Shown here: positions 24,546-31,488 of the stretch, one piece after another
Numbering within the stretch: position 1 is the first letter of the stretch
Layout of the letters: each line of letters opens with the position of its first letter
Assembly: GCA_051744345.1 (NCBI GenBank)
Contig: JBNJCW010000004.1
Location: 1-55,932, forward strand
Reading direction: 5' to 3'
Origin: Actinomycetota bacterium
GTDB lineage: Bacteria; Actinomycetota; Humimicrobiia; Humimicrobiales; Humimicrobiaceae
DNA length: 55,932 bases
The notes under the pieces: model-generated
Told to the model about the DNA's origin: nothing
The model's input: only the letters and a program-made list of their open reading frames with translations
Database searches by the model: none
Translations under genes and position numbers: made by a program

Positions 24546-24992
24546 ATGATAAGAATAACCACCAAGGGAAGGTACGGCACAAGGCTGATGCTTGAGTTGG
24601 CGCTAAATTACGGAAAAGGCCTCACCTTACTCAAGGATATTGCCCGGAGGCAGTCAATATCCGAAGGGTACCTGGAACAGATAATCCCCAGCCTCAAGGC
24701 GGCAGGCCTGGTAAAATCCTACAGGGGCGCTTACGGGGGATACAAGCTGGCCAGGAAGCCTTCCGGGATAAGCATGAGGGAGATAATTACTGCCCTGGAG
24801 GGCCCTTTAAGCCTGGTGGACTGTGTGAGCCAGCCCCGGGCATGCGATAAGACCGGCGCCTGCGCTGTGAGGGAGCTGTGGTGTGATATGAGTGAAAAAA
24901 TCACAGCAGCGCTTGATTCTGAAAACCTGGAAAGTTTAGCCAAAAAGCACAGGAGCAAGCAGAAAAGCCAGCCCTCGATGTACCATATATAG
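24546..24992 (+). CDS. Rrf2-family transcriptional regulator (IscR/CymR-like, three Cys)
   Basis: TTKGRYG, YLEQI..L..AGLV.S.RGAYGGY.LA, and C-X6-C-X5-C. Confidence 0.93.
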   Translation: MIRITTKGRYGTRLMLELALNYGKGLTLLKDIARRQSISEGYLEQIIPSLKAAGLVKSYRGAYGGYKLARKPSGISMREIITALEGPLSLVDCVSQPRACDKTGACAVRELWCDMSEKITAALDSENLESLAKKHRSKQKSQPSMYHI

Positions 24993-25054
24993 CCCCTTAT
25001 TTTTCCAGCATAGCTGGAGATTTTTAAAAAATTTTTAAAAGAAAAGGAGATAAG

Positions 25055-26356
25055 ATGTCAAAGAAAAGAAGACTGGATACCATAGCACTGCATGCCGGCC
25101 AGGAAGAGCCGGATCCCGCAACCGGGGCCAGGGCTGTCCCTATCTATCAGACCACCTCTTTTGTTTTCAAGGATACACAGCATGCAGCAGACCTTTTTGC
25201 CCTAAAAGAATTCGGCAATATCTATACCCGGATAATGAATCCCACCAATGATGTTTTTGAAAAGAGGGTGGCAGCTATTGAAGGCGGAACGGGTGCCCTG
25301 GGCGTGGCTTCGGGCCAGGCAGCCGAAACCCTTTCCCTTCTGGCCATTACCGAGCTGGGGGAGGAAATAGTTTCTGCGGACAATCTTTATGGGGGGACCT
25401 ACCAGCTGTTTCACTATACCTTCCCCCGGCTGGGAAGAAAGGTTAAGTTTGTGGATTCCCAGAAACCTGAGGAATTCAGGAAGGCAATTGGCCCCAAAAC
25501 AAGGGCCGTTTATGCTGAAACCATTGGCAATCCCAAACTGGATATCCCAGATTTTGAGAAGCTGGCCGGGATCGCCCATGATGCGAACATACCCCTGGTT
25601 GTAGATAATACCCTGGGGATAGGGCTGGCTGCCCCCATAGACTGGGGTGCCGACGTCGTGGTTCTTTCAGCTACCAAGTTTGTAGGGGGCCATGGTACAT
25701 CTATCGGGGGGGTTATCGTAGATTCAGGAAATTTTGACTGGGGAAACGGAAAATTCCCCCAGTTTACAGAGCCTGACCCCAGCTATCATGGAATAAAATA
25801 CTGGGAAACATTTGGTGATTTCCCCGATATGGGAAATATTGCCTTTATTGTTAAGGTAAGGGTACAGCTGCAGAGGGATCTGGGCGCGGCACTGAGTCCC
25901 TTTAACTCTTTCCTTTTCCTGCAGGGACTGGAGACGCTTCCCTTAAGGGTAAAAAAACATTCAGAGAACGCCCTGGCCCTGGCCGGGTTCCTTGACAGCC
26001 ACCCTCTGGTTAAGTGGGTCAACTATCCCGGTCTTAAAAACCATCCCAGCCACCAGCTGGCCGGCAAATACCTGGATGGTAGATACGGGGCCCTTATAGG
26101 TTTCGGCATAAAAGGCGGCCTGGAAGCGGGAAAGAAATTTATTAATTCGGTTAAGCTGCTTTCCCATCTGGCCAATATCGGAGATGCCAAAACCCTGGTT
26201 ATCCATCCCGCATCAACCACCCATCAGCAGCTTACTGAACAGGAACAGGCGCAGACCGGGGTAACCCCGGATTATGTTAGGCTTTCTGTGGGGCTGGAGG
26301 ATATCGAGGACATCAAGGAAGATATCGATCAGGCATTAAAAAAGGCAGTGCAATGA
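25055..26356 (+). CDS. metY: O-acetylhomoserine aminocarboxypropyltransferase (sulfhydrylase)
   Basis: [24 protein letters not shown] Lys in [30 protein letters not shown]. Confidence 0.94.
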
Positions 26357-27510
26357 GAGGCGGGAAGGAAATGGAAATGGGCAAATACAGGTATCTAAAA
26401 ATCAAGGCGGAACTGCTGACCGAAGGCATACAGGCTAGCCCCCAGGCCCTGGAGGGAGTGGGAAAAGCATACAAGGAGCAGAACCACGGGCTTTTCGGCT
26501 GGGATTTTGAGGATCATGCCCGGATGCTGCTTCCTGATGATTTTGTCCTGCCTGACGACACCACTGTACAGTTCAGGAAAAACAGCCGCTCTCCTTTTAA
26601 GATTTACCTTACCCCGGAAGGCTTGAGGCTAAGCAGGAGCGGGCAGGACATATGCGGTGTTGAGTGGATCCGGCGGCCTGCCTATTACAGCAAAAAGACA
26701 GCCGGGGAAAACAGGATGGTTGAAATCGGGCAGATTGGCGGCCAGGACTGCCTCTTTTTTTGCTACCAGAATTACTGCAGCCATTTTGCCAAAGCCCGGC
26801 AGTGCCTTTTCTGCAACCTCAATTCAACCCTTAAGACATACCGCTCTGTACTGAAGAAAAAGGATATTGAAGATATGGGGGAGGTTGCCCGGGAGGCATT
26901 CGCTGAAGGGAAAGTAAGGCATGTGCTGCTTACCGGCGGCTGCTTCAGCCACCAGAAAGAAATAGAGCTTGTGTCCGGTATTATAGGGTCGATTAAAAGG
27001 CACACCGGCATGGAAAAGGTTCCCGGCACAATCCTTCCCTCTCCTGCCAGAAGCAGGGATGAAATAAAGAGGTATCATGATACGGGGATAGGGGCTATCG
27101 GTTTTTCCATGGAGATATGGGACAGCAAACTGTATGAGGCCATCTGCCCCGGTAAGGCAGAGAGCACCAGCCACCAGGATTTTCTAAACTCCATTGAGGA
27201 GGCGGTAAAGATATTTGGACAAGGAAATGTATACGGTGTTTTTGTGATGGGCCTTGAGTCCAAAAAAACATTCCTGGAAGGAGTACGCGCGGTTACAGGC
27301 ATGGGCGCCAGTGTGGTCCCATTTGTGTGGTCACCCAATCCGGGCTCGGCATTTGAGGGGCACCGGGCACCTGTGGCTGACTGGTTTGTGGAAACTGTGC
27401 TGGAGGCCGGCGATATAGCGGCTGGCTCAGGTATTATGCCCAATGAAGAGAACCATTGTTACAAATGTGACGGAAACAGCCTTTTGTACGACGCATTGAG
27501 GCTGAAGTGA
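26353..27510 (+). CDS. Radical SAM protein with non-canonical CX8CX2C motif
   Basis: [28 protein letters not shown] and C-terminal CYKC. N-terminal KAELLTEG. Resembles MSMEG_0568/LipS1-like proteins from memory. Start may be ATG 26371 or 26377. Confidence 0.75.
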
Positions 27511-30012: not shown

Positions 30013-30035
30013 CAATGACAATGGAGGTGACTGGT

Positions 30036-30857
30036 TTGGCAGAGAAATCCCCTGAAGAAAAATTATGCCTGCTGAGGGAGAAGATTAGAAGCATGGGCAG
30101 GGTTGCGGTTGCCTTTTCGGGAGGAGTGGACAGCTCCTTTCTTCTAAAGGTTTCCTCGGATACTCTGGGCAAAAATGCCATGGCCATAACCATAGATTCC
30201 CCTTCTTTTCCCCGGAAGGAACTGGACAGGGCGGCCGGGTTTGCCAGAAAATACGGGATAAGCCATGTGGTGATAAAGGCCGGCCTGGGAGGCAATAAGT
30301 TTGTTAAAAATGACCGGCTGAGGTGTTATTACTGCAAAAGCGAGGAGTTCAGGAATATAATTGAAACAGCGAAAGAATACGGGATTGGAGCTGTTTTAGA
30401 TGGCCAGAATGAAGATGATGCCGATGACTACCGGCCTGGCTCCCGCGCAGCCTCAGAACTGGGAGTAATAAGCCCCCTAAAAGACTGCCGGCTAAAAAAG
30501 CATCAGATAAGGGACCTGTCCAGGAAAATGGGGCTTTCCGGCTGGGACCGCCCTTCACTTGCCTGTCTGGCCAGCAGGGTCCCTTACGGGACAGAAATAA
30601 CCGAAAGCCTCTTAAAGATTATCGATCATTTGGAAAGCTACCTCCTGGAGAAGGGGTTTTCCCAGGTAAGGGTAAGACACCATGGACATTTAGCCAGGAT
30701 AGAGGTAGACAGGGATGAATTTAAAAAGTTTCTGGACAAAAACCTGGCGGCTGATATTGCAGAAGAATTTAAGGGGCAGGGCTATGTTTATATTACCCTT
30801 GATATTGAAGGATACCGGACGGGCAGCATGAATAAATTGATTAATCGGCCAGAATAG
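30036..30857 (+). CDS. larE: ATP-dependent sulfur transferase LarE family
   Basis: PP-loop AFSGGVDS, RCYYCK, DYRPG, ACLASRVPYG and VRVRHHG. TTG 30036 follows RBS ggaggtga (ORF track starts at 30015). Confidence 0.9.
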   Translation: MAEKSPEEKLCLLREKIRSMGRVAVAFSGGVDSSFLLKVSSDTLGKNAMAITIDSPSFPRKELDRAAGFARKYGISHVVIKAGLGGNKFVKNDRLRCYYCKSEEFRNIIETAKEYGIGAVLDGQNEDDADDYRPGSRAASELGVISPLKDCRLKKHQIRDLSRKMGLSGWDRPSLACLASRVPYGTEITESLLKIIDHLESYLLEKGFSQVRVRHHGHLARIEVDRDEFKKFLDKNLAADIAEEFKGQGYVYITLDIEGYRTGSMNKLINRPE

Positions 30858-30870
30858 GTTTGGTGGTACT

Positions 30871-31488
30871 ATGGTAGAAAAAAAGTATGACCGGAATGCA
30901 AGGTTTTATGATTTTTTTGAGTTTCCCCTTGAAAGGATGGTTTATTCGAAGTGGAGAAAAAAGTATTTTTCTCCCCTTGAGGGAAAAATACTGGAGGTGG
31001 GGGTGGGCACCGGAAAGAACATAGATTATTACCACCCTCAGGCCGAGGTTACTGCTATTGATTTTTCAGCAGGAATGCTTGAGAAGGCAAGGCGCAAGCT
31101 TGCCGCTTCAGGCAGGAAAAATGTTATCCTGGCCAAGATGGATGTGGAGGATCTTGCTTTTAAGTCCGGGCTTTTTGACTATGTTATAGCCAGTACAGTT
31201 TTCTGCTCTGTTCCCCATCCCTTGAAGGGACTGAAGGAAATAAACAGGGTGTTGAAGCCGGGAGCAAAAGCGGTGATGATAGAGCATGTCTTAAGCAAAA
31301 GGAAGGCAACCTCCTTGCTGCAGAATCTGTTTAATCCCCTGGTAAAATCCATTACCGGGGTCAGCATAAACAGGGATACAGCAGCCAGCATAAGGGAAGC
31401 AGGGATGGAGCTGGTAGCTGAAAAAGACCTGGCCATGGGTGATGTATTTAAGCTGTTTGTTGCGCAGAAAGGGCGAGCAGCAAAATAG
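30871..31488 (+). CDS. Class I SAM-dependent methyltransferase (PmtA/UbiE-like)
   Basis: ILEVGVGTG SAM motif, IDFS.GML, VFCSVP and RVLKPG. Confidence 0.88.
   Translation: MVEKKYDRNARFYDFFEFPLERMVYSKWRKKYFSPLEGKILEVGVGTGKNIDYYHPQAEVTAIDFSAGMLEKARRKLAASGRKNVILAKMDVEDLAFKSGLFDYVIASTVFCSVPHPLKGLKEINRVLKPGAKAVMIEHVLSKRKATSLLQNLFNPLVKSITGVSINRDTAASIREAGMELVAEKDLAMGDVFKLFVAQKGRAAK

Follow-up and report, generated by a model that had tools for sequence, protein, structure and literature searches.

The first 55,932 nucleotides of contig JBNJCW010000004.1 (assembly GCA_051744345.1) of an Actinomycetota bacterium of the family Humimicrobiaceae, hereafter the window, contain a seven-gene unit for making homocysteine and cysteine, in which larE is placed between the gene of a cystathionine gamma-lyase (CGL) and that of a methyltransferase. 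The LarE encoded there is very probably an ordinary enzyme of nickel-pincer cofactor synthesis that is supplied by a co-regulated desulfurase encoded elsewhere in the genome. It is most likely an insertase interchangeable with the larC-linked type and fed by IscS, not by CGL-derived sulfide, because the larE of such sulfur operons is the sole larE found to accompany larB and larC in ten relatives and is broken in two relatives that have both copies.

A search of the genome that carries the window (G000, 97% complete) for larA, larB, larC and iscS found two larA genes, larB and larC, as supposed in an earlier sequence-only reading of the window, which had placed larB and larC elsewhere; four IscS/NifS-like cysteine desulfurases are also encoded outside the operon. 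The absence of larA, larB, larC and a desulfurase, which the same reading had pointed out, holds within the operon and does not hold genome-wide. A second larE, divergent from larC, encodes a protein that is 42% identical to the window LarE and also has the CxxC-C motif. We then compared larE among the relatives, which are draft genomes and not independent of each other. In the tree of the family, larE was divided into two clades, with the sulfur-operon genes forming one clade (support 99/98) apart from the larC-linked genes; their typical order was (iscS-mnmA)-rrf2-larE-metY-cysK, and cgl was not a usual neighbor. Among the 50 family genomes with larC, a larC-adjacent larE was present in 34 and absent in 16. 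In 10 of the latter, which span six genera, the sulfur-operon copy was the only larE found, together with larB in all ten and larA in nine, and the larC locus, inspected in every one of them, had no larE at its usual upstream site. A second larE copy was found in five of the 34 genomes with a larC-adjacent copy, and it was broken in two: in G009, a single deletion has fused cbs at codon 57 with larE at codon 49, with the loss of cbs, cgl and the N-terminus of LarE, and in G010, larE has an internal gap and a frame change, with an assembly error being possible for both disruptions. Such replacement when alone and decay when doubled would be expected if the two larE types have the same function.

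Runs of methionine and cysteine genes that include larE are also found in Dethiobacter, a methanogen and a genome of Omnitrophota, so that this placement is common, and in G017, G058, G051 and G010 and at an Omnitrophota locus, larE and iscS belong to the same run of genes. The linkage of cgl to larE, which has a 2-nt junction here, is not unique to this genome, but it is limited to G000, G003, G004 and G051, which are close relatives, and a conserved linkage of larE to the radical S-adenosylmethionine (SAM) gene was not borne out, as the latter mostly has no larE nearby. The methyltransferase gene follows larE also in G003, G004, G009 and G051. A metagenome scan with LarE gave no confirmed loci, and literature searches, with most subscription papers outside their reach, found no account of LarE in methionine or cysteine operons. 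In G025 (98% complete), as in G007 and G053, larA, larB and larC are present and no larE was found by TIGR00268, which may reflect an assembly gap or another sulfur insertase.

The sequence of the window LarE is in line with its assignment. The motifs read earlier, CYYC (C104/C107) and ACLASR (C184), are present together with the PP-loop SGGVDS at residues 35–40, and the protein is, as had been proposed, of the three-cysteine [4Fe-4S] type: the position of the sacrificial Cys176 of Lactiplantibacillus plantarum LarE is occupied by Ala183, and the next residue is Cys184, so that, with the CxxC present and no Cys at the Cys176 position, it does not belong to the sacrificial type. In the alignment to 5UDQ, 6B2O and 8CNZ, its S187, R219 and R221 correspond to Ser180/Arg212/Arg214, which bind the phosphate of P2CMN, the mononucleotide of pyridinium-3,5-biscarboxylic acid. 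The PP-loop SGGxDS and the phosphate-binding Ser/Arg/Arg are shared with Thermotoga maritima LarE (PMC9283937) and with the structures 5UDQ (L. plantarum) and 8CNZ. The CxxC-C type accounts for the majority of LarE homologs, and its characterized member from T. maritima is recharged by IscS, which is encoded far from larE (PMC9283937). The window system resembles that of T. maritima in the CxxC-C motif, the distance of the desulfurase gene from larE and the location of larB and larC elsewhere, whereas it differs in the lack of the fourth cysteine of T. maritima LarE, in the second larE beside larC and in the position of the window copy in an Rrf2 sulfur operon.

A link between the operon and a desulfurase is suggested by an operator-like box. 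The tandem composite form of the box (CTAT-N7-ATAG twice) occurs only three times in the genome, at the promoters of the rrf2 operon, metX-metW (C12:14700) and one iscS (C26:9764), and in each case 32–36 nt before a start codon. It was expected 0.45 times in the shuffled genome, and a count of three was reached in 2 of 40 shuffles, which makes the count alone weak evidence. The motif was derived from the operon and metX-metW sites, and the iscS site is an independent hit with the same spacing at a sulfur gene. Moreover, single boxes at a match of at least 7/8 preceded 9 of the 12 other rrf2 genes checked, compared with 43 of 500 AT-rich upstream regions. The Rrf2 protein may bind the box and control one regulon that would include a desulfurase in trans, and IscS would then be the probable sulfur donor of LarE. 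The best specific model for this Rrf2 was CymR, with 136.6 bits being below the cut-off of 195, so that it does not qualify as a CymR ortholog, and IscR-like cysteines are present. The description of the operon as self-contained has to be abandoned, as metX-metW and one iscS carry its box and the lar genes and desulfurases lie elsewhere in the genome. A single perfect CTAT-N7-ATAG box was also noted about 1.8 kb past the larC-linked larE (G000:C16:32581), where the contig ends and no gene begins in the vicinity.

With regard to the sulfur amino acid pathway, G000 also encodes metX-metW, two cysK, cysE, S-adenosylhomocysteine (SAH) hydrolase, an MA1821/MA1822-type homocysteine route and a MetH-type domain, and cysH and sat were not found in it by tblastn. 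Given that MetY is encoded upstream and MetX is co-regulated, the simplest flux would be from sulfide via homocysteine and cystathionine to cysteine. Cystathionine beta-synthase (CBS), gamma-lyase and methyltransferase genes under an Rrf2 repressor represent the methionine-to-cysteine arrangement of Bacillus subtilis and clostridia, in which operons of mccAB and a methyltransferase gene turn methionine into cysteine under CymR (PMC2566862). The window operon is like yrrT-mtnN-mccA-mccB of B. subtilis and ubiG-mccB-mccA of Clostridium acetobutylicum (PMC2566862) in the adjacent CBS, gamma-lyase and SAM-dependent methyltransferase genes, with the last recalling YrrT/UbiG in its position, and it has an Rrf2 gene, as the mccAB operon of B. 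subtilis is under the control of CymR, an Rrf2 protein. Unlike those operons, it additionally has metY, larE and the radical SAM gene and lacks mtnN, with SAH hydrolase being encoded in the genome; its CBS is of the full-length TIGR01137 type; and no riboswitch or other Rfam RNA was found in positions 20000–36000 of the window. The C-terminal extension of the window CBS matches a regulatory module, and for Mycobacterium tuberculosis, a full-length-type CBS that responds to SAM has been reported (PMC9232105).

It had been proposed that LarE and the radical SAM enzyme physiologically obtain their sulfur as H2S that CBS and CGL release from cysteine. Sulfide donation to LarE is chemically possible, as a related [4Fe-4S] enzyme, TtuA of Pyrococcus horikoshii, uses inorganic sulfide (PMC9283937), and the 2-nt cgl-larE junction is kept in G003, G004 and G051. 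However, most members of the window larE clade have no cgl beside them, and a desulfurase has the operator-like box of the operon. Moreover, MetY and CysK consume sulfide, so that its release from cysteine in the same regulon would make a cycle, and in G009, cbs, cgl and the larE N-terminus were deleted, yet metY and the radical SAM gene are intact. The proposal is, hence, quite improbable; H2S release by CBS and CGL is possible as a side activity, which explains nothing otherwise unexplained here.

The other idea, that LarE serves a different thiolated product, which would be a new metabolite made together with the radical SAM enzyme and the methyltransferase instead of the nickel-pincer cofactor, fares marginally worse. 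The second larE beside larC would leave the window copy free to diverge, the larE-methyltransferase order is kept in four relatives, and a larE remnant is present within a metY-metX-metW-cbs-rSAM-cgl operon of Elusimicrobium (L051). This is outweighed by the finding that the two larE types replace one another across relatives, the window clade being the only larE found in the ten genomes with larB and larC, and by the intact P2CMN-binding residues. Furthermore, of about 43 loci outside the family, only 2 had an intact larE near the radical SAM gene, and no larE at all was recovered from 12 of the 40 carrier genomes of the radical SAM enzyme.

The radical SAM enzyme, which we regard as independent of LarE, is a member of NF045502 with a hidden Markov model score above the cut-off, a CX8CX2C motif and a radical SAM barrel. 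All of its ten cysteines are invariant in 50 close homologs. A word-indexed search gave 667 homologs, the best 120 of which were 64–78% identical, and an exhaustive search delineated a tight group above approximately 55% identity, followed by a drop to 44% and approximately 34%; the clade extends across many phyla at 55–78% identity. In the predicted structure (predicted local distance difference test score of 84), a radical SAM barrel, LIAS, LipA and MqnE were tied at Z 16.7 and the top Foldseek matches were lipoyl synthases (E 1e-7), and such ties of a modeled fold give no function. RadicalSAM.org lists CX8CX2C clusters without function, the ESM Atlas gave only unnamed radical SAM clusters, and literature searches of the same limited reach for NF045502, TIGR04043 and COG2516 gave no description of the clade.

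The closest relatives for which genetics gives a function are IsrB-type enzymes, encoded in clusters resembling those of isethionate reductase, at about 30% identity. IsrB is essential for anaerobic growth on isethionate, and its exact part is stated to be unclear, with activation being one role left open (PMC11423573, PMC13474568). Two distant relatives, P0133 and P0137, lie in rSAM-nifH-nflD-nflK clusters, one of them behind an SsuABC-type transporter, and these clusters have the cysteine pattern described for IsrD (single-Cys) and IsrK (Cys12/37/~99). They are 29–31% identical to the window enzyme over 95–97% of its length, with E values of about 1e-60 to 1e-65, compared with 6e-24 for the Nit1C enzyme. 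In a quick tree, in which IsrB itself was represented by the P0133/P0137 relatives only, the window clade was separate from the Isr-like-cluster proteins. The two groups share the NF045502 family and, with reference to IsrBHDK of Rhodobacter capsulatus (PMC11423573), a context of anaerobic sulfur acquisition, but the window clade is set apart by an additional CxxC at the C-terminus, and a nitrogenase-like D/K subunit (PF00148) is absent from 44 of 45 carriers, including G000, and present in one. For the same reason, a function as an IsrB that needs HDK was rejected. The MSMEG_0568/Nit1C radical SAM enzyme (TIGR04043; PMC1199592) is alike in the long-spaced cysteine motif and the C-terminal CxxC, at 25–27% identity; however, the window enzyme scored 106.5 bits against the TIGR04043 cut-off of 303.7, and no nitrilase-cluster neighbors were present at the loci of its clade. 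LipS1/LipS2 of Thermococcus kodakarensis (PMC9585515) are likewise biotin-synthase-like radical SAM enzymes with extra C-terminal cysteines, but they have the canonical CX3CX2C motif instead of CX8CX2C, the LipS2 model scored 33 against a cut-off of 270, and G000 has a LipA-like gene.

The 46 loci of the radical SAM gene came from Chloroflexota, deltaproteobacteria, Omnitrophota, Spirochaetota, Elusimicrobiota, Actinomycetota and Bathyarchaeia, with metY, metX, metW, cbs, cgl, cysK and an Lrp-type regulator gene as recurring neighbors. By comparison, larE was near only in the window family and at two other loci. MetY was found in 43 of 44 carrier genomes (39 above the cut-off), metW is directly upstream of the radical SAM gene at 15 loci, 14 of which also have metX, and of the sister proteins checked, the closest is encoded behind a sulfonate-type ABC transporter. 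Several loci had additional features. In a methanogen (L056:6625-14270), a radical SAM gene of the MetY-associated clade follows that of an NMT1/SsuA-type binding protein, with nifH-like and nifDK-like genes in the region, this being the sole carrier with such subunits. G025 has, downstream of corrinoid methyltransferase genes, a pair of neighboring variant radical SAM paralogs, after which come a B12-binding radical SAM gene, cysH and sat (L023:5827-10480), and at L131, a similar pair of variant and B12-binding radical SAM genes follows a sulfonate-type ABC transporter. A recurring gene just downstream of the radical SAM or cbs-cgl genes in Omnitrophota and Bathyarchaeia (L030:4567-5565, L036 and L046) encodes a ThiI/MnmA-like PP-loop protein that has an RNA-binding domain, NFACT-R_2.

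As to its function, a stand-alone radical C–S cleavage or S-demethylation that supplies MetY or CBS is our preferred, albeit weak, guess. It is favored because of the IsrB-type relatives and the sulfonate-type transporter near the sister protein, together with the lack of D/K subunits in 44 of 45 carriers. The more specific suggestion of an O2-independent C–S lyase or S-demethylase that acts alone and by which a thiol for MetY would be produced from a methyl thioether, methanethiol or a sulfonate, in anaerobes of many bacterial phyla and Bathyarchaeia, is somewhat more doubtful. Less likely than either is a sulfur insertase of the LipS1/LipS2/BioB kind, which would make a thiol for the pathway with an auxiliary cluster on C265/C369/C372. 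These predicted candidate ligands are conserved, the top fold matches are lipoyl synthases (tied with MqnE), the LipS2 model gave a weak hit, and the auxiliary cluster of LipS2 is bound through a C-terminal CxxC (PMC9585515), as might be the case in the window enzyme with its own conserved CxxC. Nevertheless, the fold ties are uninformative on function, a canonical LipA-like gene is present in the genome (C12:17295-18164), for which a lipoyl synthase itself was rejected, the C-terminal CxxC is absent from the IsrB-type relatives, and radical sulfur insertion would be costly next to MetY.

A role in activating or modifying a partner protein (MetY or MetX/MetW) or in sensing, with no small-molecule substrate, is slightly less likely still. 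The 55–78% conservation across phyla, the strict gene order after metW and the fact that activation is among the roles left open for IsrB would fit it, but the radical SAM gene is often alone behind an Lrp-type regulator gene (seven loci) or far from metY, and the position of the sister protein after a sulfonate-type ABC transporter speaks for a small substrate. Most improbable is a new methionine synthase, for which the position after metY-metX-metW and the presence of a MetH domain in only 17 of 44 carriers and a MetE-type domain in 3 would be fitting. A MesB-type core synthase fills most of the gaps (20 genomes; PMC7857596), so that at least one of MetH, MesB and MetE is present in 33 of the 35 carriers outside Bathyarchaeia. 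In addition, a MetH-type domain is encoded in G000, and the radical SAM enzyme, which has no cobalamin domain, would use SAM, circularly, to make methionine. This candidate was ruled out once MesB-type genes had been found by a motif search and then used as a query. Nine Bathyarchaeia genomes (e.g., L033, L037, L040, L044, L046 and L049), which have MetY, and two bacterial drafts gave no MetH, MetE-type or MesB-type gene with the queries applied, MesC not having been searched for.

The features of the operon are listed in the table below. The seven co-oriented open reading frames were confirmed in the described order, from 24546 to 31488, and so was their tight coupling: a 62-nt gap between rrf2 and metY is followed by two 4-nt overlaps, an 11-nt overlap, a 2-nt gap and a 13-nt gap. 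The last gene is not larE, with which the operon had been said to end, but that of the methyltransferase, and the unit probably ends there, because topA, 3' of the operon, has its own promoter-like site. The gamma-lyase role of the cgl product is suggested by its pairing with cbs. The G+C content of the first five genes is 51–53%, compared with 45 ± 4% across the genes of the genome, which fits acquisition of the rrf2-to-cgl block and is no proof of it. A genome of the same genus has a locus identical to one that is labeled Actinomycetota and comes from soda-lake sediment.

Table. Predicted features of the sulfur amino acid operon (positions in the window; scores in bits, with model cut-offs; PLP, pyridoxal 5'-phosphate).
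Feature	Position	Strand	Support
Sigma-70-type promoter, TTGACA-16-TATAAT	24473..24500	+	12/12 consensus match only, predicted
Tandem palindromic operator-like box, CTAT-N7-ATAG x2, 9-bp offset	24512..24535		Between -10 element and rrf2 start; probable Rrf2 operator
Rrf2-family repressor, CymR/IscR-like, Cys93/100/106/113	24546..24992	+	TIGR00738 above cut-off
Short terminator-like hairpin between rrf2 and metY	25002..25020	+	Weak, putative
MetY, O-acetylhomoserine sulfhydrylase, PLP Lys208	25055..26356	+	TIGR01326, 653 vs 495
Variant radical SAM enzyme, C142-X8-C151-X2-C154 + C265 + C369-X2-C372	26353..27510	+	NF045502, 345 vs 125
CBS, full-length type, PLP Lys49	27507..28886	+	TIGR01137, 540.5 vs 510.25, matched over 10-450
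CGL-like PLP enzyme, Lys195	28876..30012	+	NF005871, 501 vs 513; NF005810, 483 vs 594; both below cut-off
LarE, three-cysteine [4Fe-4S] type, C104/C107/C184, sulfur-operon clade	30015..30857	+	TIGR00268, 304 vs 150
Class I SAM-dependent methyltransferase	30871..31488	+	PF08241; no NCBIfam model above cut-off

A nadA-nadB-nadC operon (20895-24326, minus strand) is divergent from rrf2 and separated from it by 219 bp; its product is the precursor pool for nicotinic acid adenine dinucleotide (NaAD), which is the substrate of LarB, and NadA belongs to the Fe-S enzymes. A functional link between the two operons through NaAD as the cofactor precursor was considered and rejected, as the adjacency is not kept in G003 or G004. 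Downstream, the topoisomerase IA (31584-33665) is matched best by archaeal-type models (NF005555 and TIGR01057 above the cut-off), with the bacterial TopA model being below the cut-off, and the genes of the class I fumarate hydratase subunits (33610-34467, plus strand, and 34425-35090, minus strand) are convergent with overlapping 3' ends, in contrast to their tandem arrangement in L062.

Taken together, it is probable that this is an Rrf2-controlled sulfur amino acid operon with LarE as the sulfur client of the regulon and the radical SAM enzyme acting independently of LarE, in a scheme for which we infer regulation and enzyme activities from the observed gene content, motifs, distributions and DNA box. 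Rrf2 would repress the operon in this uncultured anaerobic actinobacterium. MetX, encoded on another contig behind the same operator-like box, would make O-acetylhomoserine, from which MetY would form homocysteine with sulfide or methionine with methanethiol; CBS and CGL would convert homocysteine to cysteine, and the methyltransferase, with SAH hydrolase, may feed in homocysteine from methionine. LarE would adenylylate P2CMN made by LarB and insert sulfur taken from a [4Fe-5S] species, which the co-regulated IscS would recharge, and its product would serve the nickel-pincer cofactor of two LarA enzymes, with the window LarE as a spare beside the larC-linked copy. The radical SAM enzyme may cleave or demethylate a small organosulfur compound via a 5'-deoxyadenosyl radical and hand methanethiol, sulfide or homocysteine to MetY or CBS.

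Several observations weigh against this scheme. Both larE copies are apparently intact in G000, G003, G004 and G051, which leaves room for specialization, and the complementation pattern is made less clear by G007 and G053 (loci L110 and L109; 92–94% complete), in which larA, larB and larC are present and TIGR00268 gave no larE. Of the three operator-like sites, two had served to derive the motif itself. CysE and two CysK are present, so that cysteine can be made without CBS and CGL, which could act as desulfhydrases. MetY occurs commonly among anaerobes (above the cut-off in 9 of 14 controls), and no substrate or dedicated transporter was identified for the window radical SAM enzyme.

New in the present analysis are the pattern of larE replacement, the sharing of the box with iscS, the finding on MesB and the connection with IsrB-type enzymes, here without their partners. 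The swap between larC-linked and sulfur-regulon larE represents a natural test that the nickel-pincer cofactor is still what such orphan larE genes serve. Of greater importance than LarE is the radical SAM clade, which is very conserved, widespread in uncultured sediment anaerobes and tied to homocysteine synthesis. If true, a stand-alone C–S lyase without nitrogenase-like subunits would also suggest a role for IsrB as the catalyst that breaks the bond in isethionate reductase. The cleavage of C–S bonds by the radical SAM enzyme alone would be a new way of acquiring sulfur anaerobically and would allow the role of IsrB to be approached through a single protein (PMC11423573, PMC13474568).

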